Shown here in pieces: positions 3,783 through 59,599 of a stretch of DNA of 64,000 nucleotides; within the stretch, counting starts at the first letter, position 1; every line of letters starts with the position of its first letter. Both the position numbers and the translations under genes were made by a program. This DNA is from Pseudomonadota bacterium. Lineage in GTDB: Bacteria; Pseudomonadota; Alphaproteobacteria; CACIAM-22H2. Location of the stretch: NCBI GenBank assembly GCA_016201015.1, contig JACQDQ010000194.1, positions 11,149 to 75,148 of the forward strand. Reading direction: 5' to 3'. The notes below the pieces were generated by a model. It made no database searches. It was not told the DNA's origin and was given only the letters and a program-made list of their open reading frames with translations.

Positions 3783-3812
3783 ATTCCGGCCTTCGAATCA
3801 CTCACCCAACGG

Positions 3813-6413
3813 ATGCTGGCGACAATGTTGCGGAACCTGGCGGTAAGCGTAGTGGATTGGTGCTGGCACCGCGCCGCGACGGTGGTTGCCGTCGCCGCGC
3901 TGCTGACGGTTCTGTTGGGCCTGTATGCCGCCAAGACGCTGACCCTGGACACCGACGAGAGCAAGATGATCTCGTCCGATCTGCCCTTCCGTCAGGTCGA
4001 GCGCGCCATCGATGCCGCCTTCCCCCATTCCACCGACCGCCTGACCGTCATCCTGGACGGTCCCAGCGTGGAAATGGCCGAGGATGCCATCGAGCGGCTG
4101 GGCCAGGCCTTGCCGGCCCGGCACAAGGGCCTGGTCAATGCGGCGTCGCGCCCGGCCGAGGAAATGTTCTTCCGCCGCAATGGGCTGCTGTTCCTGTCGC
4201 TCTCCGAGGTCACCGCCCTCACCGAGCGCCTGGTGCAGTCCCAGCCTTTCCTGGGGGGGATCGCCCGCGACCCCTCGCTGCGCGGCCTGCTGGGCTCTGT
4301 CGATCTGATCTTGCAAGGCGTCGCCCATGGTCAGGCCCAGCCCGCCGACATCGAGCCGCTGCTGGCCCAATTGGAGGCCCCCGCCGCCGCCGCCGCCGCC
4401 GGAAAGAGCGTGGCGCCGGTGGATTGGCAGGGTCTGATGTCGGGAGGCGGCGCCAAGGATACGCCCCGGCGCTTCCTGATGGTCCAGGCGGCCCTGAATT
4501 ACGGCGAGCTGGAGCCTGGCTCCGACGCCATCGACGCCATCCGCGCCACCGCCCGCGATCTGGGCCTGACCGCCGCCAACGGCTATCATCTGCGCATCAC
4601 CGGACAGGTGGCCCTGTCCGACGCCAATTTCGCCACCGTGGCCGAAGGGGTGGAGATTTCGGCGCCGCTCTCCCTGCTGGCCGTACTGGGGCTGCTGTTC
4701 TGGGGCGTGCGCTCGGCCCGCGTGGTCGGCGCCATCATGATCTCCCTGGTGGTGGGGCTGGTGGCCACCGCCGCCTTCGCCGCCGCCACCGTCGGCAGCC
4801 TCAACCCCATCTCGGTGGCCTTCGCGGTGATGTTCGTGGGCATCGCCGTGGATTTCGCCATCCAGTTCGTCACCGCCTATCGCAACGAGCGCTACCTGAA
4901 GGGCGAGGCCGCCGCCGCCATCCTGGCCTCGGCCGGAACCATGGCGGCGCCCCTGTCCCTGGCGGCCATCGCCACCGCCGTGGGCTTCCTGTCCTTCCTG
5001 CCCACCGCCTATACCGGCGTGTCGCAATTGGGCCTGATCGCCGGCGGCGGCATGATCATCGCCCTGGTGGTGGACTTCACCGTCCTGCCCGCTTTGCTGG
5101 CCCTGCTCAAGCCCCATCCCGAGAAGGAACCGGTGGGCCTGCGTCTTCAGGCCGCCGATTCGTGGCTACGCCGCCGCTCCCGCCCCATCGTCTGGGTCGG
5201 CGGCGCCATCGCCCTGCTCGGCGCCGCCCTGCTGCCGATCATGAAGCTGGATTTCGATCCCCTGCACCTGCAAGACCCCAAGGCCGAGGCGGTCTCCACC
5301 TTCCTCGATCTGGCCCGCGACCCCGATAACGGCGTCTATGCCGTGGAGGCCCTGGCCCCCTCGGTGGCCGAGGCGGCCAGGCTGGCGGCGCGGTTCGAGG
5401 CGTTGCCCCAGGTCCATCGGGTCATGACCATCGAGACGTTCATCCCCGATGGCCAGGACGACAAGCTGCCGCTCATCACCGACGCCGCCATGGTCCTGGG
5501 GCCGACCCTGTCGCCGGCCAGGGTCATGGCCAAGCCCTCGCCCGAGGACTTGCTGGCCGCCATTTCCAAGGTCGCCGGGCAGCTCGAGACCATCGCGCCC
5601 GACCACAAGCCCTCCCAATCCCTGGCCCGCCATCTGCGCCGCATCGCCGAGCAGGGAGCCAAGGCCGCCATGGCCCTGGACCACAGCGTCGCCGACGGGC
5701 TGCCGGGATTGCTGTCGAGCCTGCGCCGCTCCCTCGATGTCGAGCCGGTCACCCTGGATTCCATTCCCGCCGAGCTAAAGCACGAATGGGTGGCCGCCGA
5801 TGGTCGCGCCCGCATCCAGGTTCTGCCCAAGGACAGCATGCAGGACCAGGAGGCCCGCAACCGCTTCAATGCCGCCGTCACCGCCATCACCCCCGCCATG
5901 TCCGGCGCTCCCATCTCCATGGAGCAATCGGGCCGGGTGGTCATCGGCGCCTTCGCCATCGCCGGCCTGGGGGCTCTGGCCGCCATCGGCCTGCTGCTGG
6001 GCCTGATGCTGCGCCGGGTGCTGGATTCGGTGCTGGTGCTGGCGCCGCTGCTGCTGGGCGCCATGGCCACGGTCATCGCGGCGCGGGCCACCGGGATCGC
6101 GCTCAACTTCGCCAATGTCATCGCCCTGCCCCTGCTGCTGGGCATCGGCGTCGCCTTCAACATCTATTTCGTGGTCAATTGGCGCAACGGCATCACCGAC
6201 CATCTGTCGTCGCCCACCACCCGCGCCGTGCTGTTCTCGGCCCTGACCACCGGATCGGCGTTCGGCAGCCTGGCCATGTCGCCGCATCTGGGCACGGCGT
6301 CCATGGGCCTGTTGCTGTTCTTGTCATTGGGACTGTCGGTGGCAGCCACCTTCGTGGTATTGCCGGCTATCTTCCATCTGATCGGCTCCCCTTCGAACGG
6401 AACGCCCAAGTGA
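3813..6413 (+). CDS. hpnN: hopanoid-associated RND/MMPL transporter HpnN
   Basis: 866 aa with two 6-TM MMPL blocks and large periplasmic loops; located within a cluster of hpn genes. Confidence 0.8.
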   Translation: MLATMLRNLAVSVVDWCWHRAATVVAVAALLTVLLGLYAAKTLTLDTDESKMISSDLPFRQVERAIDAAFPHSTDRLTVILDGPSVEMAEDAIERLGQALPARHKGLVNAASRPAEEMFFRRNGLLFLSLSEVTALTERLVQSQPFLGGIARDPSLRGLLGSVDLILQGVAHGQAQPADIEPLLAQLEAPAAAAAAGKSVAPVDWQGLMSGGGAKDTPRRFLMVQAALNYGELEPGSDAIDAIRATARDLGLTAANGYHLRITGQVALSDANFATVAEGVEISAPLSLLAVLGLLFWGVRSARVVGAIMISLVVGLVATAAFAAATVGSLNPISVAFAVMFVGIAVDFAIQFVTAYRNERYLKGEAAAAILASAGTMAAPLSLAAIATAVGFLSFLPTAYTGVSQLGLIAGGGMIIALVVDFTVLPALLALLKPHPEKEPVGLRLQAADSWLRRRSRPIVWVGGAIALLGAALLPIMKLDFDPLHLQDPKAEAVSTFLDLARDPDNGVYAVEALAPSVAEAARLAARFEALPQVHRVMTIETFIPDGQDDKLPLITDAAMVLGPTLSPARVMAKPSPEDLLAAISKVAGQLETIAPDHKPSQSLARHLRRIAEQGAKAAMALDHSVADGLPGLLSSLRRSLDVEPVTLDSIPAELKHEWVAADGRARIQVLPKDSMQDQEARNRFNAAVTAITPAMSGAPISMEQSGRVVIGAFAIAGLGALAAIGLLLGLMLRRVLDSVLVLAPLLLGAMATVIAARATGIALNFANVIALPLLLGIGVAFNIYFVVNWRNGITDHLSSPTTRAVLFSALTTGSAFGSLAMSPHLGTASMGLLLFLSLGLSVAATFVVLPAIFHLIGSPSNGTPK

Positions 6414-45653: not shown

Positions 45654-46499
45654 GTGATGGCGCGCCATATTGTCTGCCTGACATTCGATTTCGACGCGAT
45701 GTCAGTCTGGATCGCCCGCGGCATGACCTCGCCGACGCCGATCTCCCGCGGCGAGTTCGGCGTCATCGGTGCCGAGCGACTGGTCGCTCTGTTCAAGAAA
45801 TACGGCATTCCGACGACGTGGTTCATTCCCGGACATACGCTCGAGACCTATCCCGATGCCTGCCAGAACGTGGTCGATGCGGGTCACGAGATCGCGCATC
45901 ACGGCTGGACGCACGAGCCGCCCAACACGATGTCCCGCGAAAAGGAGGAAGAGGGACTGGTTCGCGGCAACGAGGCGATCCGCAGGCTCACCGGCCGCGT
46001 CGCGCGTGGCTATCGCTCGCCCTCCTGGGATCTGAGCCCGCATACGATCGAGCTCCTGCTCAAGCACGGCTTCCAATACGACAGCAGCATGATGGGGCAC
46101 GATTATCTGCCCTATCGTGCGCGCCAGGGCGACGTCATCGAGCTGGAGAAGCCGGCCGTGCTCGGCCGCACCACGCGCCTCGTCGAGATGCCGATCAGCT
46201 GGTCGCTCGACGATTATCCCCATTTCGAATTCGTGCGTACGCCGAATTTCGTGTTGCCGGGCCTGACGAACGCCAACGACGTGCTGGAGAACTGGTTCGA
46301 CGACTTCCTCTACATGCAGCAGCACTACGAGTGGGGCGTGATCACTTATACTTGCCACCCATTCGTCATCGGCCGTGGGCACCGCATGATGATGCTCGAG
46401 CGGCTGATCCAAAAGCTGAGCGAGCACGGCGCTGAATTCCAGTGCATGGAGACAGTGGTTCAGGAGTGGGAGCGGCGGATGCCGCAGGCCGCGGAATAG
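45654..46499 (+). CDS. polysaccharide deacetylase (CE4) family protein
   Basis: FDFD...HGWTHE motifs (NodB homology). Confidence 0.8.
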   Translation: MMARHIVCLTFDFDAMSVWIARGMTSPTPISRGEFGVIGAERLVALFKKYGIPTTWFIPGHTLETYPDACQNVVDAGHEIAHHGWTHEPPNTMSREKEEEGLVRGNEAIRRLTGRVARGYRSPSWDLSPHTIELLLKHGFQYDSSMMGHDYLPYRARQGDVIELEKPAVLGRTTRLVEMPISWSLDDYPHFEFVRTPNFVLPGLTNANDVLENWFDDFLYMQQHYEWGVITYTCHPFVIGRGHRMMMLERLIQKLSEHGAEFQCMETVVQEWERRMPQAAE

Positions 46500-46514
46500 C
46501 GACTCGGTCCTGCG

Positions 46515-47351
46515 TCAGTCCGCAGCGGCATTCGCCGCGGGGCGATGCGTGTCGAAATGGCGGCCGAGAAAGCTGCGTAGATCGGCGACGCAGCGGTCGG
46601 CAAGAAAGTCGCAGACGTTGTGCGGAGCATCCTCATAGGACAGGACATCGATCCGAGGTATGCGCTCGCGCATCAGCTCGAAGCTGCGCATTGAGCCGAT
46701 CTTGCCGAGGCCGGGCACGACCAGCAGGGTCGGGCAGCGGATCTGGTGCAGCCGATCGCTCCAGTCCTGCGACGCCATCAACGTGATGAAGCGGACGACA
46801 TACGCTGTGTCGTTCTTCGCCGTCTCGTCCAGGAACCATTCGATCAGCCCAGGATCGACCCCGCCGACGGGGAAGCGGTCGTCGATCGTGTCCGCGAGGA
46901 AGCCGCGCAGCCCCTTGCTTTCGACCTGCGGCAGCCAGGACGCCGCCTGACTATCCTTGAGACCCGGCTGCGAGCCATAAAGCGCGATGCTGCGGGCCCG
47001 CTGCGGCGTGTCCATGGCAATCTGCTGCGCCAGGTAGCCGCCGGCCGAGTTGCCGACTAGATGCGCGCTGGCAAGGCCCATCGTGTCGAGAAACTCGATG
47101 ACATCCTTGACCACGCGCCCGATGGTGAGCGGCAGATTGGGGGGCGGGATCTGCGACTCGCCGTGCCCGCGCAGATCGAGGCGGAACACGCGATAGTGCC
47201 GCGCCAAGCCGGGTACCCAGGAATAGAAGCGTCTGGCGCTGCCCATGGCCGAATGGAGCAGGACGAGTGCATCGGAATTGCGCCACGAATCGGTGAAATC
47301 GTCGGCCAGGTAGTGCAGTTCGACTCCATCGCTGGCCGTGAAGAAAGGCAT
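46515..47351 (-). CDS. alpha/beta-fold hydrolase
   Basis: HGESQ and nucleophile elbow GNSAGG motifs; 278 aa. Confidence 0.8.
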   Translation of the reverse strand: MPFFTASDGVELHYLADDFTDSWRNSDALVLLHSAMGSARRFYSWVPGLARHYRVFRLDLRGHGESQIPPPNLPLTIGRVVKDVIEFLDTMGLASAHLVGNSAGGYLAQQIAMDTPQRARSIALYGSQPGLKDSQAASWLPQVESKGLRGFLADTIDDRFPVGGVDPGLIEWFLDETAKNDTAYVVRFITLMASQDWSDRLHQIRCPTLLVVPGLGKIGSMRSFELMRERIPRIDVLSYEDAPHNVCDFLADRCVADLRSFLGRHFDTHRPAANAAAD

Positions 47352-47699
47352 AGGCCGTCTCGGTATATGTCAATCGGCCGATATTTATAGCCAGGATCGC
47401 GAACGGAGTCCCGCTTGCGGCGGCCGGGCGCACGCCGAACAGCCGATGGGCGGAAGATGGCGACACGGCATGACCACCAATCGCCACGCTTTCGGCAGCG
47501 TGCCGCTCGGTCGCTCGCTCGACACGGCAGGCCAAGTGACAAAATGGTGACGTCGCCCGCAATACTTGAACCCGCAAATTGGACACAAACTGTTGACGGC
47601 GACGATTTAGACTATAGGCTGATGCGAACACCACGGCGAACGACGGTGGGCAGGGGTGTCGGCCCTGCCACAGTTGAGCCACAATGCAACGGGGGATCG
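47352..47699. promoter_or_regulatory. ~350-nt divergent intergenic region, presumed promoter region of the multihaem-cytochrome operon
   Basis: Largest non-coding gap in this area; precedes seven co-directional tightly spaced genes. No specific motif assigned. Confidence 0.3.
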
Positions 47700-48653
47700 A
47701 TGATTTACCGGACATGCGCTGCATATGCGGCGGGCGTCCTGGGACTCGTCCTGGGGCTGAGTCTGAGAATCGACATGGCGGCGGCCGAACCCTTCTACGT
47801 CGGCGCCAAGAAGTGCGAGGAATGCCATCGCCCAGAAAGCGACGTATGGGAGGGCATGAAGCACGCAAAGTCGTTCGGCGAGATCCACCGTAAGCCGGAA
47901 GTTCGCGCGATCATTCAGGCCGCCGGCGGCAACACCAACATGCGGCGCAACGAGGTCTGCATCCAGTGCCACTACACGAATGCCAAGGCCGACGCGGGCG
48001 CCCAACCGCAGGCAGTATCCGGACCATCGTGCGAATCCTGCCACGGACCAGCTTCCGATTGGATCTCGGTCCACAACAATTTCGGCGGGCCGAACGCCAA
48101 GAAGGCCGACGAAACGCCGGCTAACAGGGCCAAGCGCCAGGCGGACGCCTCGAAGGCCGGCATGATCTGGCCGCAGGAGATATACGAGGTCGCGCAAAAC
48201 TGCATGTCCTGTCACGGACTGTCGCGCCCAGGCGTCGATGGCGCAGCGATTGGCAAGATGATCGAGGCGGGGCACCCGGTTAAGGGCGAATTCGAATTCG
48301 TGCTCTATTCGCAGGGCACAGTTCGCCACCGCTTCTATAACTCGACAACGAATTCGGAGATGGCGCCTGCCGAAGCGGCACGCGCCTTCATCGCCGGCCA
48401 TGCGGCGGCGCTGGTCAACGTAACGGCGGCCAAGGGCAAGAGCAGCGATGCCAAATTCACAGCTGCGCAGCAAAAGCTCGAGCAGGCAGCGCGCAAGGCG
48501 CTGGACGCGGTCAAGGGCGCGGCGCCGGAAGCGGCGACCCTGCTCTCCGCGCCCACTGACGACAACGCCCAGAAACTGGTTGCGGCGATCGCCAGCAAGG
48601 ATCTCTCGGCGCAAGTCGGTGGTATGCTGCCGGCGAAGAACACCTATAAGTAG
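47700..48653 (+). CDS. periplasmic tetrahaem c-type cytochrome with an Ala/Lys-rich helical C-terminal tail
   Basis: Four CxxCH motifs (CEECH, CIQCH, CESCH, CMSCH) after a hydrophobic N-terminal leader. Confidence 0.75.
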   Translation: MIYRTCAAYAAGVLGLVLGLSLRIDMAAAEPFYVGAKKCEECHRPESDVWEGMKHAKSFGEIHRKPEVRAIIQAAGGNTNMRRNEVCIQCHYTNAKADAGAQPQAVSGPSCESCHGPASDWISVHNNFGGPNAKKADETPANRAKRQADASKAGMIWPQEIYEVAQNCMSCHGLSRPGVDGAAIGKMIEAGHPVKGEFEFVLYSQGTVRHRFYNSTTNSEMAPAEAARAFIAGHAAALVNVTAAKGKSSDAKFTAAQQKLEQAARKALDAVKGAAPEAATLLSAPTDDNAQKLVAAIASKDLSAQVGGMLPAKNTYK

Positions 48654-48750
48654 GGTGACCGAATCGCCGAAGAGTTTGGATTGAGCGGCGTGTGATCAAT
48701 TTGTTCGGAGGTAGGCCCGCGAGAACAGATGGCGGTGCCGCGGGCAACGG

Positions 48751-50463
48751 GTGCGGCATGGGGAAGGGACGAGGGAACAGGCGATGACCGATGTCGCGAT
48801 GATGGCACGGCCCCAGCGCTGGGACGTGCCGTTCGACCCCGCGATGACCGATGCCGACGTGCGACTCCTGTTGCAGCGGCGAGAGTTCCGCGACATCAAG
48901 CCGGACAACTTTCCGCCGCACATGCCGCTCGAGGGCATCCTCAAGAACGACGCGCGTCTCGTCCACTTTCGGCCGGGCGACATCGTGGTGCGCGAAGGCG
49001 ACTATGGCAACTCCGCCTTCCTCGTCCTCGAGGGCCGTCTGCGCGTGGTGCTGGCGCCGGGGCTGCCGCCCGATCTTCACGGCCGGCAGCACGGCCGCCA
49101 GAAGGGCTTCTTCGAGGCGCTGGCGCAGCTATGGACCAATCGCCGTATCCCGGAGGTGCGGGACATCCGTCGTTACCGCTTCGCCCGCGAGGGACTGCGG
49201 CACGATTACTCGAGCGGCAATGTCCGCGTGTTCATTCAGGACATCCCTGCCGTACTCGACAAGCACCGCACCGCCGGTCTTGAGGATGGCGCGATCTTCG
49301 GCGAGATCGCCGCGCTTGGGCGCGTGCCGCGTACCGCCTCGATCTTCGCCGAGACTGATGCCAGGCTGCTCGAAATTCGCTGGCAGGGCCTTCGGGAACT
49401 TCGCCGCTACGACGAGAATTGGCGACGGCAGATCGACGAACGGTACCGAGCAAACGCACTGCGCACGCATCTTCGGGACACCAAGATCTTCGAGGGCTTG
49501 GACGAGAATGTGCTTGAGGCCATTGCCGAGCGGACCCTGTTCGAAACCTATGGCAGCTTCGACTGGCACCTTTCCTATAAGCAGCTCATGCAGCGCGGCG
49601 AAAATGCGGAAGCGAAGGAGCCGGTTATCGCGCAGCAGGGCGACTATCCCGACGGTGTATTGCTGATTCGCGCAGGCTTCGCGCGGGTCAGCATGAAGCT
49701 GGGTACCGGGAAGCGGACGCTCACCTATCTAGGTGCCGGAGATCACTATGGATTCGACGAACTCTATGCCAATTGGAAATCCGGGGAAACAAAGCCGTTG
49801 CAGACGACGCTGACGGCGGTCGGCTATATCGACATCTTGCGTGTTCCGGCCGAAGTGCTCGAGAAGCATGTCTTTCCCCGCCAGGCGCAACCGCCCAAGG
49901 CGCTCATTTCGCTCGCCGACCGCCCGCTGTCCGACGATGCCTTGATCGACTGGGCCGTCGACAAGCGGTTCATCAACGCCACCAAGGCGATGCTCATCGA
50001 TCTCGATCGCTGCGTGCGCTGCGACGATTGTGTCCGCGCCTGCGCCAGCACCCATGGCGGCAATCCGCGCTTTGTCCGCGCCGGCTCGACGTTCGACCAC
50101 TGGATGGTCACGAACGCCTGCATGCATTGTGCCGACCCGGTCTGCATGATCGGCTGCCCGACCGGCGCCATCCATCGCAGCCTCGAAGGCGGTACGGTCG
50201 TCATCAACGACGACACTTGCATCGGCTGCGGCACCTGTGCCGCGTCGTGCCCCTACGACAACATCCGCATGGTCGAAATCACCGACGTGAGCGGCAAGGA
50301 GCTGGTCGACCCGAAGACGCGGCAGCCCATTCTCAAGGCGACCAAGTGCGATCTGTGCGAGAGCAATCCGGGCGGCCCGGCTTGCGTTCGCGCCTGCCCG
50401 CACGACGCATTGCGGCGTGTCGACTTCCGCGATACCAATCCCTTCCGGTCGCCGAACGCATGA
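48751..50463 (+). CDS. fusion protein: two cNMP-binding (CAP-like) domains plus a four-cluster [4Fe-4S] NrfC/DmsB-type ferredoxin module
   Basis: Beta-roll/FGEIAALG signature appears twice. C-terminus carries CVRCDDCVRAC, CMHCADPVCMIGCP, CIGCGTCAASCP and CDLCESNPGGPACVRACP. No HTH and no Tat signal. Confidence 0.75.
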   Translation: MRHGEGTREQAMTDVAMMARPQRWDVPFDPAMTDADVRLLLQRREFRDIKPDNFPPHMPLEGILKNDARLVHFRPGDIVVREGDYGNSAFLVLEGRLRVVLAPGLPPDLHGRQHGRQKGFFEALAQLWTNRRIPEVRDIRRYRFAREGLRHDYSSGNVRVFIQDIPAVLDKHRTAGLEDGAIFGEIAALGRVPRTASIFAETDARLLEIRWQGLRELRRYDENWRRQIDERYRANALRTHLRDTKIFEGLDENVLEAIAERTLFETYGSFDWHLSYKQLMQRGENAEAKEPVIAQQGDYPDGVLLIRAGFARVSMKLGTGKRTLTYLGAGDHYGFDELYANWKSGETKPLQTTLTAVGYIDILRVPAEVLEKHVFPRQAQPPKALISLADRPLSDDALIDWAVDKRFINATKAMLIDLDRCVRCDDCVRACASTHGGNPRFVRAGSTFDHWMVTNACMHCADPVCMIGCPTGAIHRSLEGGTVVINDDTCIGCGTCAASCPYDNIRMVEITDVSGKELVDPKTRQPILKATKCDLCESNPGGPACVRACPHDALRRVDFRDTNPFRSPNA

Positions 50464-51275
50464 AGGCCCTGGCGCGTGCCCTTGCCGTTCCGGCCGGGAT
50501 CAGCCTCCTCTTCGTTGCGGGGCTGGCCCTGTGGCTGCATCAGCGCTGGCTTCAACTCGGCGACACCGGCCGCATCACCGGCTACATATTGTTCGCCGTG
50601 ATGTTGGGGCTCGGCGTGCTCAATCTGCGCAAGCGCCTGTCAATGGTGCCGTTGGCCCGCGCAGCCGACTGGGTGTCATGGCATGCCGTTGGCGGCGTGC
50701 TGGCCCTCGCGCTATTCTGGCTGCACACCAACACGCTGTGGCCAGCGGGACCGTACGAGCAGTTTCTCGCCTTGCTATTTTATCTGGTGACAATTACCGG
50801 CATCGCCGGATATGCGTTGCAGAAGGTGACTCCGAAGTGGCTGACGCAGACCGGAATCGAGCTCATTTTCGAACGGATTCCGATCGAGATCGTGCGGTTG
50901 CGATTGACCGCTGAGCGTGTCGTCTACGATTGCTGCGAGGCGACGGGGAGCGAGACCCTGGGCCGCTTCTATCTCGAAACGCTCGACTGGTATTTCCGCA
51001 AGCCACGCTTCCTGACCAGCACCCTGGGTGGCGGGCGGCGCGGCCAGCGCTGGGTCCGGCAGCAATGCGACGGTGTCGCGCGCGCACTCCAGGCCAATGA
51101 AATTTCCTATCTCGAGACGCTGCGCCAGCTCGCGGACGCAAAGGCGCTGGCCGACATTCACTATTCCCTGCAAGGGGCAACCAAGCTTTGGCTGCTCGTC
51201 CACGTGCCGCTCGCGGCAGCGGTTCTGGTGGTCGCTCTGTGGCACTTGCTCGTCGTCAGCGTCTACGCCCTATGA
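50460..51275 (+). CDS. polytopic membrane protein (5 predicted TM) with intramembrane His residues, possibly b-type haem binding
   Basis: TM helices with H27, H76, H90, H250, H262; ATGA start-stop overlap with the upstream Fe-S gene. Confidence 0.55.
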   Translation: MKALARALAVPAGISLLFVAGLALWLHQRWLQLGDTGRITGYILFAVMLGLGVLNLRKRLSMVPLARAADWVSWHAVGGVLALALFWLHTNTLWPAGPYEQFLALLFYLVTITGIAGYALQKVTPKWLTQTGIELIFERIPIEIVRLRLTAERVVYDCCEATGSETLGRFYLETLDWYFRKPRFLTSTLGGGRRGQRWVRQQCDGVARALQANEISYLETLRQLADAKALADIHYSLQGATKLWLLVHVPLAAAVLVVALWHLLVVSVYAL

Positions 51276-53191
51276 CCCAGCCCTTCAAGTTCATCCCTGT
51301 CGATACTGGCTACGAGCGGCCGAATTTTCCGTGGCGCTGCGGCGCCGGCGCGCACTGGACGCGTCCGTGCACGCTGGGCCCCTCGATCCACGGCCAATGC
51401 CGCGGTACATCGGAATGCGCTCCGACGCGCAAGGGGGATCGCTGGGAGTGCCGCCGCCCGGCCTCGCTCGGGGGATCATGTCCGGTCGGGCCCGGCACCG
51501 ATGGCAGCTGCTCGCAGATTCATCCCCCCTGCGCGCCGGTGCGCACGATCCGCGGCTGGCGCGGGCACCTCACGGTGCTTGCCATCGTCCTCATGCTCAG
51601 TCTGATTGCAGCACTGCACAGCGAATCCTTTACCCGGGCGAGTGGGGTGAGCTCGATCAATCCTGGTCCGCTCACCAGCCGCCACGCGCAGTTCGTCGGT
51701 GAACAGGGTTGTGCCACCTGCCATGCCGCACATGGCCAGGGGCCAGGCGGCTGGTTGGCAGCGGCATTCGCCCCGCGCGATGCGAGCGGCCGCTGCGTCG
51801 ACTGCCATGCCTTCGGCGGATCGGCTGAAGCGGCCCACAACACGACGTTTGAGAAGCGACAAGACGTGGCGCAGACGTCGTGCATCATGTGCCATACAGA
51901 GCACAAGGGCCAAACGGCCAATCTCGTGCAGATTGCCGATGCCCAGTGTCAGACCTGTCACACCGAGAAATTCGACCACTTCGCCAAGAATCATCCGCAG
52001 TTTGGCCCGCACTATCCGTATCCCGAGCGTGGGGCCATCCAATTCAACCACGTCGCCCATTTCGATAAGCACTTCGCCGACCCGCGGTACAAGCCGAACG
52101 CGCCGACGGGCTGCGTCGGCTGCCATCGCCTCGACGCCGGGGTGAACGTCATGCGCACGACGAAATTCGCCGACATGTGCGCGACATGCCATACCGATCA
52201 GATCACGCGGCGCGAATTCGTCCTGTTCCGCTTGCCTGAATTCAACGAGAGCAAGATTGCCGCCGCAAAGGTCACGGAGGCGTGCGGTCCGTCTCCTGCC
52301 GAGTTGGAGTCGCTCAAGGCGCGGCTGAATGCGCTGACGCGCGGCACGCCGTCGCCGCCGGCGAAGAATGAGCCGTATTCGAGCATCTCTGCCGATCCGC
52401 CCAACGCGGTGCTGGCCTATTTGCTGGGGGTGCCGGCCGACGATCCGGACGCCTACGGCGAGTCGGTCCAATCTCTTGTGCTGGACATGGCCCGTGACGG
52501 TGTTATGCCGTTGGCCGACAAGCTGCCGGCCTCCGCTGCGAGGCCGGCGCTGCTCGCCGGCCTCAACGGCGAATTGGTCCGCCGCGTCGCCTGCGCCTGG
52601 GCGGCCAATCGCGAATACGAGCCGCCGCCGGAAGGCAAGGGAACGACCGGATGGAAGGCGGACGGCCTAACGCTGCGCTTGGTTCCGGCCGGCCATGCCG
52701 ATCCGGTCGTGCGCAGTTGGTTGGATTTTGTTGTCTCCGGACCGCCGGCAAAGAGCAAGGAAGATGCTGCCCGACTCGACGCGATGCGCAAGGAGATGCT
52801 GTCGACCGCGGAAGGGCCCGGAGCGTGCGTCAAATGCCATGCCCTGACGGCGGCTTCGGCCGACAAGTTGCAAATAGATTGGTCGAAGCACTACGCGCGC
52901 AGCGGGCCGCAGACGCGCTTCCTGCATGCCCCGCACGTCAACTTGCTGGGGCCGGATGCGACGTGCACCGTCTGCCATAAATTCGATTCGACCGCCGACT
53001 ACGCGGCCGCCTTCAAGACCCTGGACCCACACCAATACGTCAGCAACTTCAAGGCAATGGTGACAACGACCTGCAGCGGGTGCCACGCCGCGGGCAAAGT
53101 CCGGGCTGATTGCCAAGCCTGCCATATCTATCATCGCGACCACACGTTCAAAAAGCGCATGGTGAACATCGACTCGGCAGCGGCCAACTGA
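51272..53191 (+). CDS. decahaem c-type cytochrome with an N-terminal Cys-rich segment and one TM helix
   Basis: Ten CxxCH motifs. The first ~100 aa hold 8 Cys but no CxxCH, followed by LTVLAIVLMLSLIAAL. ATGA overlap with the upstream gene. Confidence 0.8.
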   Translation: MTQPFKFIPVDTGYERPNFPWRCGAGAHWTRPCTLGPSIHGQCRGTSECAPTRKGDRWECRRPASLGGSCPVGPGTDGSCSQIHPPCAPVRTIRGWRGHLTVLAIVLMLSLIAALHSESFTRASGVSSINPGPLTSRHAQFVGEQGCATCHAAHGQGPGGWLAAAFAPRDASGRCVDCHAFGGSAEAAHNTTFEKRQDVAQTSCIMCHTEHKGQTANLVQIADAQCQTCHTEKFDHFAKNHPQFGPHYPYPERGAIQFNHVAHFDKHFADPRYKPNAPTGCVGCHRLDAGVNVMRTTKFADMCATCHTDQITRREFVLFRLPEFNESKIAAAKVTEACGPSPAELESLKARLNALTRGTPSPPAKNEPYSSISADPPNAVLAYLLGVPADDPDAYGESVQSLVLDMARDGVMPLADKLPASAARPALLAGLNGELVRRVACAWAANREYEPPPEGKGTTGWKADGLTLRLVPAGHADPVVRSWLDFVVSGPPAKSKEDAARLDAMRKEMLSTAEGPGACVKCHALTAASADKLQIDWSKHYARSGPQTRFLHAPHVNLLGPDATCTVCHKFDSTADYAAAFKTLDPHQYVSNFKAMVTTTCSGCHAAGKVRADCQACHIYHRDHTFKKRMVNIDSAAAN

Positions 53192-53546
53192 CCGGCGGCG
53201 CGGCCGGCCGGCACGCCTCGGTTTGCGCTGCATCAAAGGCTGAGAGGAGTTCGCAGTATGGGCCGGCAACCGGTTCAAAACATTTATGAATTGCTGCGCG
53301 TGTAGTATGGTGTATAAAGGTTAATCAGTGTCCGGGTGGCGCCGCGGGGTTTCGCCATGTTAAGGTTTTGGTAACGGGTACTGGTGTCCGATGAAGCAGC
53401 GAGCACAAGCAGTGGTAAGGCTCCGCTCGAACCAGGAACGAGACCGGGACGGACGGCCAAAATCCCGGCGCTATCGCAGGCGGTCTGCCAGGGAGGTTGA
53501 CGCTTCCGCGCCATTGCGGCGCGGCTGGATTGGGGAGACGCCCTCC

Positions 53547-55331
53547 ATGTCTCGTCGCATTCGGCTCGCGACCACCGCGATCGCGGCCTCGTTCCGCGTC
53601 GCTTCATCAATGCTTTTGGGACTGTCGATCAGCGCCGCGGCCACCGCGGGGAGCGCATGGGCACAGACCGCGGCAGCAGGGGTAGACCCGCATGCTGCGT
53701 TGCTCGCTGAGACTTCGTATCCTAGCGCGTCGCAATGCGCGGTGTGTCACCGCCAGATCTACAACGAATGGTCTTCGTCGAATCACGCCTATGCGTCGAT
53801 CTCGCCGATGTTCCACAAGTTCGAGCAGGCGATCAACGAGCTCGCCTCGGGGACGGTCGGTACGTTCTGCGTACGTTGTCACCAGGGCGCCGGCACGCAA
53901 CGCGGCGAGCCGCGCGAGAAGCCGCTGTGGGAGCGCTCGGCTGCCGCGCGCGAAGGCGTCACCTGTATCTCCTGTCATCGCGTGCAGGAGGAATACGGGC
54001 GTGCCAACGGTGAGCGGCTGATCGAGCCCGGCGATGTCTCTGCGCCTGTCTTTAACGCGCACGAATCGACCGGGCTCGGCAAGGTGATCGCCGAGAATGA
54101 TTTCTACAAGGTGGCGACGACGCCGGCCGAGCGCGGCAGCCGCATCCATCTCAGAGCGCTCAAGAATGAGCAGATCGGCAAGTCGGAATTCTGTCTGTCC
54201 TGCCATCAGGTTGCGGTCCATCCAGGCATCAAGCTCGAGGTCGTGTGGGAGCAGTACCGCGCGGCGCCGGCGGCGCAGCAGGGCGTGGTCTGCCAGGAAT
54301 GCCACATGGGCAAGGTTCCCGGTAAGCCGATGGGCTATGCCGTCGGCCCGACTGCGGTGGTCAACGGGCAGGCCGTCGAACCGAACCGCAAGCACTCCAA
54401 CCACTCATTCTACGGGCCGGGTTATCCAATCGCCCATCCGGGCATCTTTCCGCACAATCCCAAGGCCGAGAACCATTCGATCCAAGAATGGCTACGCTAT
54501 GACTATCGCGCCGGCTGGGGCAATCCCGAGTTTGAGGACAAGGTCGAGAAAAATCAGATCAAGGCGGAATTCCCACAGGAATGGGCCGACCGCGTCGACC
54601 GCGAGGAAGCCTTCGAAGTCATCCAGGAGAATCTGCAGCGGCTCGAGGAGAAGCGGAAGCTGCGTGTCGCCGTCATGGAGAATGGCTCCAAGATCGACGG
54701 ACCGTTTTTCGGCTCCACGCCCCGGCTTGGTCAATCGCTGAGTTTCACCTATCGCGTAGCGAACACGAGCACCGGCCACAACTTTCCGTCCGGCTCGCTC
54801 GGCGCTCAACCGGAAATCTGGCTGAACGTCGCGCTGACCGATCCGGCCGGCAAGACGGTGTGGGAATCCGGCTATACCGACAGCAACGGCGACATGGCCG
54901 ACCTGCACTCGCACGATGTCGCCGCCAGCCGCATCAAGCACGACGATCAGCTGTTCAACCTGCAGACCAAGTTCCTGACCACCAACGTCAAGGGCACGGA
55001 TCGCGAGATGTATCTGCCGATCAATTTCGACGTCGATCAACTGCCCTTCATACGGCCTGCAACTATACCGACGACCGTGCTCAACCATCCGCCTTTCATC
55101 CGCATGGAAGGGCGAAGCCTGCCGCCGCTGAGTTCGCGCAACGCCAATTACAGCGTGACCGGCTCGGCGCTCTCGGCGCCTGGCAAGTACCGGCTGTCGG
55201 TGCGTCTGCGGAGCCGTGCCGAGCCGATCTACTTCATGCGCTTCGTCGGGGCCACTGTCGAAATGGAGCAGGCGATGAATGAGTGGCTCATCGACATTCA
55301 TCCCTACGCCGTCGAGTTCGAGGTGAAATGA
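53547..55331 (+). CDS. pentahaem c-type cytochrome with a ~330 aa haem-free C-terminal domain
   Basis: Signal peptide plus CAVCH, CVRCH, CISCH, CLSCH, CQECH. The ORF track starts at 53391, but MSRRIRLATTAIAAS followed by a signal sequence is the likely start. Confidence 0.7.
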   Translation: MSRRIRLATTAIAASFRVASSMLLGLSISAAATAGSAWAQTAAAGVDPHAALLAETSYPSASQCAVCHRQIYNEWSSSNHAYASISPMFHKFEQAINELASGTVGTFCVRCHQGAGTQRGEPREKPLWERSAAAREGVTCISCHRVQEEYGRANGERLIEPGDVSAPVFNAHESTGLGKVIAENDFYKVATTPAERGSRIHLRALKNEQIGKSEFCLSCHQVAVHPGIKLEVVWEQYRAAPAAQQGVVCQECHMGKVPGKPMGYAVGPTAVVNGQAVEPNRKHSNHSFYGPGYPIAHPGIFPHNPKAENHSIQEWLRYDYRAGWGNPEFEDKVEKNQIKAEFPQEWADRVDREEAFEVIQENLQRLEEKRKLRVAVMENGSKIDGPFFGSTPRLGQSLSFTYRVANTSTGHNFPSGSLGAQPEIWLNVALTDPAGKTVWESGYTDSNGDMADLHSHDVAASRIKHDDQLFNLQTKFLTTNVKGTDREMYLPINFDVDQLPFIRPATIPTTVLNHPPFIRMEGRSLPPLSSRNANYSVTGSALSAPGKYRLSVRLRSRAEPIYFMRFVGATVEMEQAMNEWLIDIHPYAVEFEVK

Positions 55332-56890
55332 TTCGCAGGGGAGAAGCGGGGGGGAGCGAGAGTCGCCCCGACGCAACAGGGCGCGGAGGGCGCCATCGCG
55401 CAGGCCGATGGTTGCTGGCATGCGTCGGCGCGATCGCGCTGGCAGCCGCTGCACATGCGGCCGATCCGCCGGAGATGTCGCCCGACGTCAAGTCGATTCC
55501 TTACGATCCGAAGGTATTCAAGCAGGACCCGACCTACGACGACAAGCCGTACGATGCGCAGCGGCAGCAGGATATCTATGGTGGGAAGAAGGCGGTCGAT
55601 ACGCCGCGGCCGGTGATCGAAATCGGTCGCCCGCTCTACACCGAAGGTCCGTTTCGTCCGAGCTCGGTACTGCTTGGCGAAAAGAATCTGATCGCGCCCA
55701 GCCTGTGGCTTTACGGCGACTGGCGGACGGCGGTGGCCTACAACGACAACGGCAAGAAGGAGGATGCGCAGATCGCCACCCGCCTGAATCTTGATGTCGA
55801 TCTGAAGCTTACCGCGACCGAACGCGTCCACGCCTTCTTCCGTCCGCTTGATCAGGGCGGCCAGTTCACGCATTACTCATTTGCCGGCGACGATCGCAGT
55901 CAGGGCAAGTTCATCAAGGACGGCAATCTCGAGAACTTATTCTTCGAAGGCGATCTCGGCGCGATGGCGCAGGGACTGACCGGGGAATACAACGGCGTCG
56001 ATCTGCCCGTCGCCGCCGGCCTCATGCCGATGCTGTTCCAGAACGGCGTGTGGGTCGACGACGCGTTTACCGGATTTGCCTTCGCGATTCCGGCGCGAAA
56101 CAGCAAATTCCTCGACATCTCCAACATGGACATCACCTACTTCATGGGCCTCGACAAGGTGTCCACCGCGGCGATCAGGGATGACAAGAAACAGATCGCC
56201 GACCACAACGTGCAGCTCTATGGCGTCGCCGCGTTTGTCGAAACGCTCGAAGGTTACTTCGAAGTCGGCTACGGCTATACGCGTGGTGAGGGGATATTCG
56301 ACGAACTCAGCTATCACAACGCGACGCTCGCGTTTACCCGGCGTTACGGCGGCTTCTTGTCGAACAGCGTGCGGGGCATCTGGAATTTCGGCCAGAACCG
56401 CCGCAACAACCAGCAGCAAACCGCTGACGGCTTCATCTTGTTGGTCGAAAACTCGCTGATCACCTCGAAGCCGCTGACGCTGGTGCCATATTTCAATTTC
56501 TTTGCCGGATTCGATCGGCCGCAGTCGTTGGCGCGCGATCCGGGTGCCGGCGGCGTGCTCAAGAATACCGGCATCAACTTCGAGACCGATGGCCTGACCG
56601 GCTTTCCGAAGCTCGACGATACCGGGCAGAACACCTATGGCGGCGCGGTCGGTCTGCAGTATTTGTTCAATCTCGACCAGCAGATCGTGGTCGAGGCGGC
56701 GGGGCTCAAGGTGCGTGAAGGCAACTTCGAGGCCGGACGTCCGGCGCGCGGCGATGAATTCGCGATTGGCGTGCGCTACCAGATTCCGGTGACAAATCGT
56801 TGGATCTTCCGCGCCGACGCGATCAAGGCGTGGCGCGAGAATGACGCGGATTTCGCCGGGATCCGCGCGGAGGTTCGGCGCAAGTTCTGA
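55328..56890 (+). CDS. putative outer-membrane beta-barrel (porin-like) protein
   Basis: Signal peptide WLLACVGAIALAAAAHA, alternating amphipathic beta-strand pattern, Tyr/Gly-rich, C-terminal ...VRRKF; ATGA overlap with the pentahaem gene. Confidence 0.55.
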   Translation: MIRRGEAGGSESRPDATGRGGRHRAGRWLLACVGAIALAAAAHAADPPEMSPDVKSIPYDPKVFKQDPTYDDKPYDAQRQQDIYGGKKAVDTPRPVIEIGRPLYTEGPFRPSSVLLGEKNLIAPSLWLYGDWRTAVAYNDNGKKEDAQIATRLNLDVDLKLTATERVHAFFRPLDQGGQFTHYSFAGDDRSQGKFIKDGNLENLFFEGDLGAMAQGLTGEYNGVDLPVAAGLMPMLFQNGVWVDDAFTGFAFAIPARNSKFLDISNMDITYFMGLDKVSTAAIRDDKKQIADHNVQLYGVAAFVETLEGYFEVGYGYTRGEGIFDELSYHNATLAFTRRYGGFLSNSVRGIWNFGQNRRNNQQQTADGFILLVENSLITSKPLTLVPYFNFFAGFDRPQSLARDPGAGGVLKNTGINFETDGLTGFPKLDDTGQNTYGGAVGLQYLFNLDQQIVVEAAGLKVREGNFEAGRPARGDEFAIGVRYQIPVTNRWIFRADAIKAWRENDADFAGIRAEVRRKF

Positions 56891-56946
56891 TCGGCGCCGG
56901 CTGGTCCGATCGGGCGTATCAGATCGAAGAGGAACGGGGCGGAGCG

Positions 56947-58218
56947 GTGGATATCCTTCTGACGGTTGCTGGGGCCGCGGTCATGGTGGCGATGGCGGCC
57001 TATGTCGTGAATCTTAGCCTCATGCAGTGGCGGGTCGCCGCGTTGGCGCGCGGCCGCGTCGAGGATGAGCGGACTCTGCTCAAGGAGCGGATCGCGCAGC
57101 TCGCCTTGAAGCGGCAGTTCGAAGAGCAGCGCAACGAATTGTCGTGGAGCGGGTTCCGCAAGTTCGAAGTCGTGCGTAAGGTGCTCGAGGGCGGCGGCGT
57201 CGCCTCGATCTATATGCGCCCGCACGATGGCAAAAAGCTGCCGCCGTTCCGTCCGGGCCAGTACTTGACGTTCCGGCTTAATGTTCCCGGTCAGCGTCAA
57301 CCGGTCATCCGCTGCTATTCGCTGTCCGACAACCCGAATCCCGAGCATTTCCGCATCTCGGTGAAGAAAGTGCTGCCGCCACGCGATAAGCCGGATGTGC
57401 CGTCCGGCCTGTCGTCGACCTACTTCAACGACGTGGTGAAGGAAGGCGATATCATCGATGTGAAGGCACCGGGTGGCGGCTTCTACCTCGACACCACCAA
57501 GCCACGCCCGATCGTTCTGATCGGCGGCGGCATTGGGCTGACGCCGGTCTTTAGCATGCTCAAGGCGGTCTGCGAATCGTCGAGCAAGCAGGAGGCTTGG
57601 TTCTTCTATGGCGTGCGCAATCGCGTCGAGCATATTTGGCGCGATGAATTCTCGCGGATTGCGCGTGAAAACGAGAATGTCCGTTTGCATGTCTGCTATA
57701 GCGACCCGACGCCCGAGTGCCACGAGGGCACCGACTACCAGCATGCGGCGCGAGTGGGTGTCGATCTCCTGAAGCGGCTGCTGCCGTCGAACAACTACGA
57801 GTTCTATATCTGCGGCCCGCCGCCGATGATGGATTCGATCACCTCAGGACTCGCCGAATGGGGCGTGCCCGAGGACCGCGTCCATTTCGAGGCATTCGGA
57901 CCGGCCACGGTCAAGAAGGTCGCGAAAGCGGCGGAGGCGCCCGTGGCGGCACCCGGCGCGCCGACATTGCAGGTCCTATTCGCCAAGTCGGGGCGGACGG
58001 TTCGCTGGGACGGCCGCGCGGCATCGCTGCTCGAGCTTGCGGAGGCGAACGGCATCACGATCGATTTCGGCTGCCGTGCCGGCAATTGCGGCACATGCCT
58101 GACCGCGATCAAGAACGGCGACGTGAGCTACGTCAACCCGCCGGGTTCGATGCCGGAAAAGGGCTCGTGCCTGACCTGCGTGTCCGTACCCAAATCCGAT
58201 CTGACATTGGACGCCTGA
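56947..58218 (+). CDS. membrane-anchored ferredoxin-NAD(P) reductase family oxidoreductase with a C-terminal [2Fe-2S] ferredoxin domain
   Basis: N-terminal TM helix, FAD motif RCYSLS, NAD motif GGGIGLTP, and a C-terminal CRAGNCGTC...C plant-type ferredoxin motif; GTG start 57 nt after the beta-barrel gene. Confidence 0.8.
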   Translation: MDILLTVAGAAVMVAMAAYVVNLSLMQWRVAALARGRVEDERTLLKERIAQLALKRQFEEQRNELSWSGFRKFEVVRKVLEGGGVASIYMRPHDGKKLPPFRPGQYLTFRLNVPGQRQPVIRCYSLSDNPNPEHFRISVKKVLPPRDKPDVPSGLSSTYFNDVVKEGDIIDVKAPGGGFYLDTTKPRPIVLIGGGIGLTPVFSMLKAVCESSSKQEAWFFYGVRNRVEHIWRDEFSRIARENENVRLHVCYSDPTPECHEGTDYQHAARVGVDLLKRLLPSNNYEFYICGPPPMMDSITSGLAEWGVPEDRVHFEAFGPATVKKVAKAAEAPVAAPGAPTLQVLFAKSGRTVRWDGRAASLLELAEANGITIDFGCRAGNCGTCLTAIKNGDVSYVNPPGSMPEKGSCLTCVSVPKSDLTLDA

Positions 58219-58227
58219 CGTCCGGCC

Positions 58228-59175
58228 TTAACGAGCCGGGACAAGTTCGGCGGCGGCGGCGACAAGGGCGAGGCCGCGCGCAGCGGCATGCGCCTCGCCA
58301 TATTGCGTGGCGAGCCCGCGGGTGGCCAGTGCCGTCACGTAGAGCTTGCCGAGGGACTGCGTGCCGACCAGGGTGATCGTAGCCGGCTTCGTGCTGCCGG
58401 CCCTTGCCGCCAGGCAGGCAAGCGCCTCGTCGATTTCCGTCCCGATGACGAGACCGCTCAGATAGGAGCGTAGCGCTGTCGCCGGTACCTGCTCGAACAG
58501 ACCAAGCGTGCGTGTACTGAACAGCTTCTTCAGCAATCCGCCATGACCCGCTGAGGCTGCGTAGTCGATGCCGCGGCGAAATGCCGCCACGTCCTCCGAT
58601 TCCCCCGCCATCAGGCGACCCAGGATACTGTGTGCCGCGAGCACCGCGAAAACCTCGCCGGTCATGAACGTTGCGAACCATACGATTCGGCCATTCTCGA
58701 CGAGCACCCACTTGCTATGGGTTCCCGGGAGAACGAAGGTGGCCTGCGCGGTCGCGCTTGAGCCGCCGAGGGCGCCGACGATCTGCGTTTCTTCACCTCG
58801 CATCACGTCGGGCACGTCGTCATCGTTGCGCATGACACCCGGAACAAACCAGAGGCGGCAGCCGTTCCGGGCCGTATGCGGCACCAGGGCGTGAGCGAGG
58901 TCCTCGAGTCCGGCGGGGCAGGATACGTAAGGCGCCTCCACCCATCCCTGCCGGCTGCCGATCATGCCTGCAGCGACGGCCGGCAATGCGCCGTGCTGTG
59001 CGATCCAGGGGCCTGCAGCCTCGTTGAAGACCCGATCGAAGTCGCAGTCGGGGACGTTCAGGATACCGGATGGCCGCTCGATCCGATCGGCGATACGGCC
59101 CGACCGCGCGATGAGGTAGGCGCGAAACGAAGTCGTCCCCCAGTCTAGGGCAATCAAGACCGGTGGGTCAGACAC
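58228..59175 (-). CDS. dgoK: 2-dehydro-3-deoxygalactonokinase
   Basis: 315 aa; LIALDWGTTSFRAY N-terminus typical of DgoK. Confidence 0.8.
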   Translation of the reverse strand: MSDPPVLIALDWGTTSFRAYLIARSGRIADRIERPSGILNVPDCDFDRVFNEAAGPWIAQHGALPAVAAGMIGSRQGWVEAPYVSCPAGLEDLAHALVPHTARNGCRLWFVPGVMRNDDDVPDVMRGEETQIVGALGGSSATAQATFVLPGTHSKWVLVENGRIVWFATFMTGEVFAVLAAHSILGRLMAGESEDVAAFRRGIDYAASAGHGGLLKKLFSTRTLGLFEQVPATALRSYLSGLVIGTEIDEALACLAARAGSTKPATITLVGTQSLGKLYVTALATRGLATQYGEAHAAARGLALVAAAAELVPAR

Positions 59176-59329
59176 GCGGTGGATGGGTCACTCCAGGCAT
59201 GCTGGGGGCCGATCTAGGCGCCGTCAAAATATTTACTCGACAACAAACACCACCGCTAGCGCCCACTCAGGCGCCAACGGCGGCGTCGACACGAACCTAG
59301 CCCGAACTTTCCACCGGAAGGGGTGGCGG

Positions 59330-59599
59330 CTAGAGGCTGGCGCGAATTCCCTTGGAGGCCTTGAAGCGAACAGACTTGCTGGCGCCAATCTTGATCACTT
59401 CGCCGGTCTTCGGATTGCGTCCCTTGCGCGCGCCGCGCCTGGACACTTTGAACGTCCCAAAGCCGACGATGCCGAGACTGCCGTCCTTTTTCAGAGTCTT
59501 GACGATGCCGCCGAACAGAGCGTCAACCGTCTTCTTGGCTTTGACCGATGTGCAGCCCGCGTTCTTCTTGATGATGTCAACGAGTTCTGCCTTGCTCAT
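59330..59599 (-). CDS. hup: HU family DNA-binding protein
   Basis: MSKAELVDIIKK...GFGTFKVSRRGARKGRNPKTGE (HU arm); 89 aa. The ORF-track ORF extends upstream to 59701. Confidence 0.9.
   Translation of the reverse strand: MSKAELVDIIKKNAGCTSVKAKKTVDALFGGIVKTLKKDGSLGIVGFGTFKVSRRGARKGRNPKTGEVIKIGASKSVRFKASKGIRASL

Follow-up and report, generated by a model that had tools for sequence, protein, structure and literature searches.

The gene at positions 56947–58218 of the DNA analysed here, a 64,000-nucleotide stretch of the alphaproteobacterial contig JACQDQ010000194.1 (hereafter, the window), is a real gene for a membrane-tethered flavin and iron–sulfur reductase. Judged by gene content, the cluster to which it belongs is the ptdABCDEFG operon, as this is set out in the examined passages and supplements of a preprint (bioRxiv 10.1101/2023.11.21.568154), and the gene itself is ptdC. 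As to its function, sequence comparison makes it reasonably probable that PtdC would be the flavin/iron–sulfur dehydrogenase subunit that feeds electrons from NAD(P)H into the multihaem-cytochrome wire of the Ptd system, across the cell envelope.

Domain architecture and topology of PtdC

The open reading frame begins with GTG and encodes 423 amino acids. An independent gene call (L081) gave the same 423-residue product, and a database protein (P0001) is 100% identical to PtdC of the window. The start and the N-terminal helix are kept, with 100% coverage, in homologues of about 425 amino acids. Starts at Met13 and Met16 were considered and rejected, since both the homologues and the independent gene call span the full N-terminus.

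Three Pfam families were found in the protein, namely FAD_binding_6 (residues 100–179, 30.4 bits, with a cut-off of 21.1), NAD_binding_1 (residues 191–298, 70.9 bits, 1.7e-19) and Fer2 (residues 348–416, 44.1 bits, 2e-11), the last two also scoring above their curated cut-offs. At the level of motifs, PtdC has the features that place a protein in the FNR superfamily: a beta-barrel with RxYS, a Rossmann-type domain with GGxGxxP and CGP, and the C-terminal aromatic residue within EAFGP. Likewise, its C-terminus has the Cx4Cx2C...C ligand set and the predicted beta-grasp fold of plant-type [2Fe-2S] proteins. Specifically, the cluster motif reads C376RAGNC381GTC384, that is C-x4-C-x2-C, and alignment to the plant ferredoxins 5h57 and 1frr assigns C411 (LTC411) as the fourth ligand. 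Alignments of 21 and of 63 homologues show these hallmark motifs with little or no variation, RCYS and all four cluster cysteines being invariant across the 63 sequences. Three residues ahead of the fourth ligand is C408, an additional invariant cysteine (C408-L-T-C411, nucleotides 58168–58179); plant ferredoxins have Val or Ile at this position.

The AlphaFold2 model of PtdC (mean predicted local distance difference test, pLDDT, 81.7) predicts a single unbroken helix from residue 2 to 65 (pLDDT 82–94), a two-domain FNR fold (70–316), a disordered linker (318–338) and a ferredoxin domain (341–422). The domain order proposed by the initial annotation, i.e. a transmembrane helix followed by the flavin adenine dinucleotide (FAD) domain with RxYS, the NAD(P) domain and a C-terminal plant-type [2Fe-2S] domain, is thus borne out by Pfam, by the model and by the ferredoxin alignment.

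The same annotation had the protein anchored in the membrane, with its catalytic domains in the cytoplasm. The anchor is confirmed by the hydrophobic N-terminal helix, seen both in the AlphaFold2 model and in the Kyte-Doolittle profile, where the most hydrophobic 19-mer of PtdC falls within residues 1–26 (2.38). For the cytoplasmic location, three lines of evidence agree. The segment directly after the helix (QWRVAALARGR) has three Arg but neither Asp nor Glu, the helix itself is preceded by just Met-Asp, and the wider stretch 26–60 is only +2 net (8 K/R against 6 D/E). In addition, no export signal was found on the cofactor-bearing PtdC. Finally, five PtdC variants of 629–692 amino acids (P0086, P0104, P0107, P0113 and P0114) begin with an FHA domain, followed by a long low-complexity linker and two transmembrane helices, and then continue with the same body of stalk, FNR module and Fer2 domain. 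Two transmembrane helices after a cytoplasmic FHA domain bring the FHA and reductase ends to the same side, the cytoplasm. All together, these data support a predicted topology of the single-helix PtdC with the N-terminus outside and the C-terminus inside, the stalk, the FNR module and the [2Fe-2S] domain being cytoplasmic. The FHA-fused forms, one of which (L162, 10001–12043) heads a C-E-F-G cluster, also hint at control by phospho-threonine signalling.

By both sequence and fold, the best match to residues 65–320 of PtdC is the reductase half of flavohaemoglobin (Hmp/FHP). Flavohaemoglobin 1cqx/3ozu aligns at 36% identity (E 3e-49; Foldseek E 7e-25), and the comparison with the Hmp FAD/NAD module 4eh1 gives a target-normalised TM-score of 0.91. 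RxYS, GGxGxTP and ExFGP are common to the two proteins. They differ in that flavohaemoglobin has a globin, whereas PtdC has the transmembrane helix and the stalk in its place and adds the C-terminal [2Fe-2S] domain. The NCBIfam flavohaemoprotein model matches PtdC with 242 bits, against a cut-off of 432 bits, and over model positions 144–397 only. With the match starting at model position 144 and residues 1–65 predicted to be one helix, no globin domain was found in PtdC. The examined passages of the preprint liken PtdC to a flavohaemoprotein, which matches the similarity found here, and raise the idea of a nitric-oxide dioxygenase; we rejected the latter, since a protein that lacks the globin domain gives it no support.

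A second relative is NqrF, the subunit through which NADH delivers its electrons to a membrane redox complex, the Na+-translocating NADH:quinone reductase. Like PtdC, NqrF combines one N-terminal membrane helix, a plant-type [2Fe-2S] domain and an FNR module in one chain. The order differs, being helix–Fer2–FNR in NqrF and helix–stalk–FNR–Fer2 in PtdC, and the identity is about 25%; the NqrF model scores 119 bits, below its 295-bit cut-off, and the annotation of the window places no nqr genes near ptdC. The FAD domain of PtdC contains an NqrF-like insertion (PPRDKPDVPSGLSSTYF). This proline-rich insertion, LPPRDKPDVPSGLSSTYF, occupies residues 142–158 (nucleotides 57370–57420) and has TPPPKIPDAPPGIMSSYI as its NqrF equivalent; the pattern PPxxxPDxPPGxxSSY is common to both proteins, whereas the flavohaemoglobin loop at this place is shorter and different.

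The third relative, phthalate dioxygenase reductase (PDR, 2pia), resembles PtdC in that its FNR module comes first and a plant-type [2Fe-2S] domain forms the C-terminus; it aligns over residues 69–422 (Foldseek E 7e-23). The same order occurs in the CYP116B reductase, PaaE, Hcr and GbcB, and identities to proteins of this kind are 23–25%. They are soluble reductases for oxygenases or for the hybrid-cluster protein; PtdC is instead membrane-anchored and encoded within a cytochrome cluster. In addition, PDR uses flavin mononucleotide, while PtdC appears closest in sequence to the FAD enzymes Hmp and NqrF. The 'PDR-type' label first given to the protein is therefore right for the domain order only, 2pia aligning at just about 25% identity, and does not hold for the flavin/NAD module, which resembles flavohaemoglobin and NqrF in sequence and fold.

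Linkage with the cytochrome genes and identity with the ptd operon

The genomic context of PtdC was surveyed in a scan of one genome per species, in which at least 594 species have a relative. We fetched 80 loci and scored the neighbouring genes by tBLASTn and by BLASTp of open reading frames, using the seven proteins of the window. Other ptd genes lie beside ptdC in 78 of these 80 PtdC-selected genome loci, which come from many phyla, and in the remaining two loci ptdC is at a contig end. The complete set of seven genes is present in 33 of the 80 loci. Gene order varies, with DEFGABC (18 loci), ABCDEFG (6 loci) and also CEFG-type and DEFGC-type arrangements, and the spacers between ptdC and its neighbour are mostly 10–100 nucleotides long.

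The four genes C, E, F and G occur together in 56 of the 80 loci. Thirteen of these 56 (L010, L015, L017, L051, L057, L063, L064, L069, L074–L076, L078 and L079) are without PtdA/PtdB within 10 kilobases (kb), with PtdD present or not, and include Verrucomicrobiota, Omnitrophota and some Nitrospinota. These 13 loci single out PtdE, PtdF and PtdG as the conserved partners of PtdC. In one of them, from Verrucomicrobiae (L063), the core has beside it a 1331-amino-acid LVIVD-repeat protein with cytochrome c motifs (2203–6198, minus strand), and an 817-amino-acid protein without a Pfam match also adjoins it.

A comparable result was obtained in the reciprocal direction. Of 80 metagenome loci selected with PtdF, 19 extend for 7 kb or more to each side, and every one of these contains ptdC; the 34 loci without it are all short, truncated contigs. 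In conclusion, as judged by homology, PtdC is an obligate member of the ptd system, with PtdE, PtdF and PtdG, rather than the PtdA/PtdB pair, as its constant partners. The co-occurrence with the upstream cytochrome genes suggested as a check on the first description of the gene is therefore found in both directions (78 of 80 and 19 of 19 loci). Neither of the two situations named there as counter-evidence, an occurrence in related genomes away from cytochrome genes and a promoter of its own, was encountered, the 56-nucleotide spacer before ptdC containing no promoter-like site.

The gene set of the window corresponds to that of the ptd operon as given in the examined parts of the preprint: PtdA, a pentahaem cytochrome with a beta-sandwich; PtdB, a porin; PtdC, an FAD/NAD(P)-binding oxidoreductase; PtdD, a tetrahaem cytochrome; PtdE, a protein binding cyclic nucleotide monophosphates (cNMP), with 4Fe-4S clusters; PtdF, a ferric-reductase-like membrane protein; and PtdG, a decahaem cytochrome (bioRxiv 10.1101/2023.11.21.568154). 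That is, ptdC of the window is accompanied by five-, four- and ten-haem cytochromes, a porin-like protein, a cNMP/4Fe-4S protein and a membrane protein. Moreover, the Ferruginivarius sediminum sequence QPMH01000006 of the preprint's Table S7 is one of our loci (L070), and its genes are homologous one-for-one to those of the window. Roseibium aggregatum and Tistlia consotensis appear in the same table; these two, F. sediminum and Hwanghaeella grinnelliae (L041) are cultured bacteria that carry the cluster. In the same source, PtdC is assigned to the cytoplasm by PSORTb and the ptd genes are highly transcribed in Alphaproteobacteria of the largest marine oxygen-deficient zone. Our literature search for another name of the ptd cluster, or for an experiment on it, found only this preprint.

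The two descriptions differ in gene order, ABCDEFG in the preprint and DEFG-ABC in the window, and in habitat. The examined parts of the preprint report ptd from saline habitats only, whereas the window comes from a groundwater metagenome-assembled genome (MAG). The label of this MAG is HY246, whose prefix we take to be that of a groundwater MAG series. Further freshwater, groundwater and peat clusters are from Lake Baikal (L002), Lac Pavin (L071), groundwater (L061) and SPRUCE peat (L057 and L075), and ptd clusters are also carried by the M_DeepCast and K_Offshore lake-water MAGs (L005 and L035), which are presumably Lake Tanganyika samples.

In the passages and supplements of the preprint that were examined, nothing is said of an anchor in the membrane, of a stalk, of a [2Fe-2S] domain at the C-terminus of PtdC or of its FHA-fused forms. 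Relative to them, what is new here is the anchor with its stalk, the C-terminal [2Fe-2S] domain with its ligands, the flavohaemoglobin/NqrF affinity and the FHA-fused forms; and, for the system, the C-E-F-G core as opposed to an optional A-B pair, a predicted four instead of two clusters in PtdE, and the non-saline occurrence. PtdC of the window is thus a further, groundwater-derived member of a named but uncharacterised family, and our results are a solid annotation with incremental refinements.

The ptd cluster of the window

The seven genes lie on the plus strand in the order DEFG-ABC (Table 1). A convergent 2-keto-3-deoxy-galactonokinase gene ends 9 nucleotides downstream of ptdC, so that ptdC closes the cluster, as had been supposed when it was placed at the end of a cytochrome operon. 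Start and stop codons overlap as ATGA at three junctions (ptdE/ptdF, ptdF/ptdG and ptdA/ptdB), and gaps of 355 and 56 nucleotides separate ptdG from ptdA and ptdB from ptdC, respectively. In a scan of positions 46400–59400, no promoter- or terminator-like site was found near ptdC on the plus strand, with counts at or below the shuffle expectation, which shows no more than the absence of an obvious signal. Similarly, the 56-nucleotide spacer folds no better than its shuffled versions (z = +1.23). An internal promoter driving a ptdABC sub-operon could lie in the 355-nucleotide non-coding gap (53192–53546); no sigma-70-like site was seen there.

Table 1. Position in the window of ptdC, of the domains and motifs of its product (numbered by PtdC residue) and of the other ptd genes
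Feature	Position (nucleotides)	Strand	Description and basis
ptdC	56947–58218	+	423-residue membrane-anchored FNR-type reductase with C-terminal [2Fe-2S]; GTG start; open reading frame and translation
N-terminal transmembrane helix, residues 2–26	56950–57024	+	Kyte-Doolittle; AlphaFold2 pLDDT 90–94; hydrophobic segment conserved among homologues, as is the Arg after it
Predicted cytoplasmic stalk helix, residues 27–65	57025–57141	+	Continuous with the transmembrane helix in the AlphaFold2 model; charged, weakly conserved
FAD-binding beta-barrel, residues 66–185	57142–57501	+	Pfam; alignment to flavohaemoglobin 1cqx/3ozu and NqrF
RxYS motif, R122-C-Y-S125	57310–57321	+	In the FAD domain
NAD(P)H-binding domain, residues 186–317	57502–57897	+	Pfam NAD_binding_1; invariant alignment columns
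Glycine-rich NAD(P)H motif, G193GGIGLTP200	57523–57546	+	
C289GPPPMM, residues 289–295	57811–57831	+	
E315AFGP319	57889–57897 (E315AF)	+	G318-P319 (to 57903) fall in the start of the linker
Ala/Pro-rich flexible linker, residues 318–338	57898–57960	+	Sole AlphaFold2 segment with pLDDT <50; length varies among homologues
Plant-type [2Fe-2S] ferredoxin domain, residues 339–423	57961–58215	+	Fer2; ligands C376, C381, C384, C411
ptdD	47415–48653 (probable ATG 47700)	+	Periplasmic tetrahaem cytochrome c; four CxxCH; Cytochrome_C554; orthologues in 55 loci
ptdE	48751–50463	+	Cytoplasmic cNMP-binding protein with four Cys groups; Pfam cNMP_binding, Fer4_11; NCBIfam DmsB/NrfC/HybA-type
ptdF	50460–51275	+	271-residue membrane protein, putative di-haem b; invariant H75, H89, H248, H262
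ptdG	51272–53191	+	Decahaem cytochrome c with 8-Cys N-domain and transmembrane helix 95–121; ten CxxCH
ptdA	53547–55331 (mechanical start 53391)	+	Pentahaem cytochrome c with haem-free C-terminal half; five CxxCH
ptdB	55328–56890	+	520-residue porin-like outer-membrane protein; signal-like N-terminus, C-terminal Phe
ptdB–ptdC spacer, 56 nucleotides	56891–56946	+	Purine-rich stretches (GAGGAA / GGAG) ahead of the GTG start

PtdE contains 16 invariant cysteines in four groups (421–431, 457–469, 490–500 and 533–549), a pattern that suggests four [4Fe-4S] clusters, as in proteins of the DmsB/NrfC/HybA type; the examined parts of the preprint give two (bioRxiv 10.1101/2023.11.21.568154). Its cNMP phosphate-binding cassette (FGEIAALGRVPRTA, residues 183–196) is conserved, and no export signal was found on the protein. 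The four invariant histidines of PtdF form two pairs at i,i+14 on two transmembrane helices, and no Pfam family matched the protein, Ferric_reduct included. Between the two helices, PtdF has a cytoplasmic helical insert of about 70 residues.

The N-domain of PtdG (residues ~1–95, 51272–51560) has eight cysteines, each present in at least 33 of 34 aligned sequences, in the pattern YERP..CGR..W..PC..GP..G.CGG..C.P..W.CRR..GG.C..GP..G.C...PPC.P, followed by basic residues and a single transmembrane helix. This arrangement makes possible a cytoplasmic metal or iron–sulfur site on a periplasmic cytochrome. As for the remaining genes, the mechanical start of the ptdD reading frame is 47415, and the ATG at 47700 precedes a signal-like helix. 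PtdA matches cytochrome c552 (PDB 5ze8) with an E-value of 4e-7 and is 64–72% identical in the twelve best-scoring loci. PtdB has no match in Pfam or NCBIfam, and the independent gene call gave the same 520-residue product.

A putative electron path from NAD(P)H and its meaning

In the path that we propose, NAD(P)H would give a hydride to the FAD of PtdC, and FAD would hand single electrons to the [2Fe-2S] cluster on its flexible linker. This cluster would reduce the four-cluster, cNMP-binding PtdE, which would in turn reduce two putative bis-His haems b of PtdF, and PtdF would carry the electron across the membrane. In the periplasm, the membrane-anchored decahaem PtdG would receive the electrons and pass them to the tetrahaem PtdD, with the pentahaem PtdA and the porin-like PtdB following where present. 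The whole line would amount to a quinone-independent, NAD(P)H-fed electron export, in which PtdC would have the role of the dehydrogenase domain of NOX enzymes, or that of Fre for MsrQ. The direction of flow, the order of the partners and the nucleotide used are what we infer from the composition, motifs and linkage described above. Movement of electrons from the cytoplasm to the periplasm is favoured by the membrane potential, which drives them to the positive side; because of this, and of the low potential of NAD(P)H, outward flow is favoured.

Known systems offer partial parallels. In the Fre-MsrQ-MsrP chain of Escherichia coli, an FNR-type reductase that is a protein in its own right supplies electrons to a haem-containing membrane protein, from which a periplasmic enzyme is served (PMC12525009). 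Both this system and the NOX/FRD enzymes lead from a cytoplasmic FNR-type NAD(P)H dehydrogenase to a membrane bis-His haem and then to the outside (PMC12525009; PMC5676040). The Ptd arrangement differs from them in that the dehydrogenase is separate, self-anchored and equipped with its own iron–sulfur cluster, that a four-cluster protein would be intercalated, and that electrons would leave through a chain of 19 c-type haems.

Several points weigh against the proposed path. The stalk of PtdC and its extra invariant Cys408 are left unexplained by it. PtdF, in contrast to NOX/FRD proteins, has no Ferric_reduct match, and the resemblance of its fold to FRD proteins is unspecific, the search returning generic four-helix bundles beside haem proteins. 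In the examined parts of the preprint, ptd function is called 'completely unknown', and transcription of ptdC could not be judged there, since scaffolds were truncated (bioRxiv 10.1101/2023.11.21.568154). With regard to the nucleotide, the specificity segment FFYGVRN of PtdC, aligned with FVHGARN in FHP, FWYGARS in NqrF and FHAAEN in E. coli Hmp, resembles that of NADH users but is not diagnostic of NADH as against NADPH. FHP and NqrF are NADH enzymes, and for PtdC we see a slight lean to NADH over NADPH. Finally, the contact between PtdC and PtdE is a guess, and PtdC could dock directly on PtdF.

This last point leads to the alternative that survives best, although we hold it to be unlikely. 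PtdC might reduce the cytoplasmic-side haem of PtdF directly, as in NOX, leaving PtdE as a cNMP-controlled regulator or as a parallel input. The membrane anchor of PtdC would set it beside PtdF, NOX and Fre-MsrQ work without an iron–sulfur relay, and the conserved cNMP phosphate-binding cassette of PtdE would suit a regulator. On the other hand, the 16 invariant cysteines of PtdE point to a working four-cluster wire, PtdE is as tightly linked to PtdC as PtdF is, and the predicted stalk of about 40 residues would keep the FNR module off the membrane.

Electrons might also run in the opposite direction, an option that we regard as improbable; the initial annotation, which saw in PtdC a plausible entry or exit point for NAD(P)H, had left room for it. 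The cytochromes would then take electrons from external or periplasmic donors and pass them inward through PtdF and PtdE to PtdC, which would reduce NAD(P)+ and so give lithotrophs a reverse-flow route to reducing power. FNR-type enzymes are reversible in principle, and among the carriers of the cluster are Nitrospinota, which oxidise nitrite and depend on reverse electron flow; the cluster is, however, equally common in heterotrophic Alphaproteobacteria, Verrucomicrobiota and Planctomycetota. Furthermore, electrons moving inward would have to overcome the membrane potential and would arrive at about -320 mV, and the cluster encodes neither an ion-coupled nor a bifurcating module.

That PtdC is an unrelated reductase adjoining the cytochrome genes by chance, be it of the PDR/PaaE/Hcr type serving an oxygenase or a hybrid-cluster protein, or one resembling a nitric-oxide dioxygenase, is very improbable. 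In favour of it are full-length NCBIfam matches to the models of PaaE (130 bits), GbcB (119 bits) and an Hcr-type NADH oxidoreductase (96 bits), together with the flavohaemoprotein match given above. All of these score far below the family cut-offs, however, no globin domain and no oxygenase or hybrid-cluster gene nearby was found, and the ptd linkage survives permutations of gene order, loss of PtdA/PtdB and phylum boundaries. The oxygenase-reductase reading was rejected on synteny, with ptd genes as neighbours; the transmembrane helix also sets PtdC apart from the soluble oxygenase reductases.

Known porin-cytochrome conduits draw their electrons from the quinol pool, and a quinone-independent conduit fed by NAD(P)H, as proposed here for Ptd, would be unusual. 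Having an NAD(P)H dehydrogenase of its own, such a conduit would draw directly on the cell's reducing power and on the membrane potential. This cost would call for tight control, with which the cNMP and FHA domains fit. More tentatively, and as a possibility that we still find doubtful, the PtdC-E-F-G core might represent a new kind of NAD(P)H-fed, quinone-bypassing trans-membrane electron exporter, switched by a second messenger or by phosphorylation and combined with interchangeable outer modules. If so, switching would act through the cNMP cassette of PtdE and, in some lineages, through the FHA domain fused to PtdC; the outer module would be PtdA/PtdB in most lineages and another multihaem/LVIVD-repeat protein in Verrucomicrobiota. 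The system would then be a regulated 'split NOX with a cytochrome wire' in widespread aerobic or microaerobic aquatic bacteria, possibly used for extracellular reduction, of metals or of oxygen to superoxide, or for a periplasmic nitrogen-oxide reaction.

Counting one genome per species, ptd reaches at least 594 species genomes, with freshwater, groundwater and peat bacteria included. For this family, PtdC, defined from its sequence as the putative anchored FAD/[2Fe-2S] subunit, would offer a concrete and testable entry point to Ptd biochemistry.

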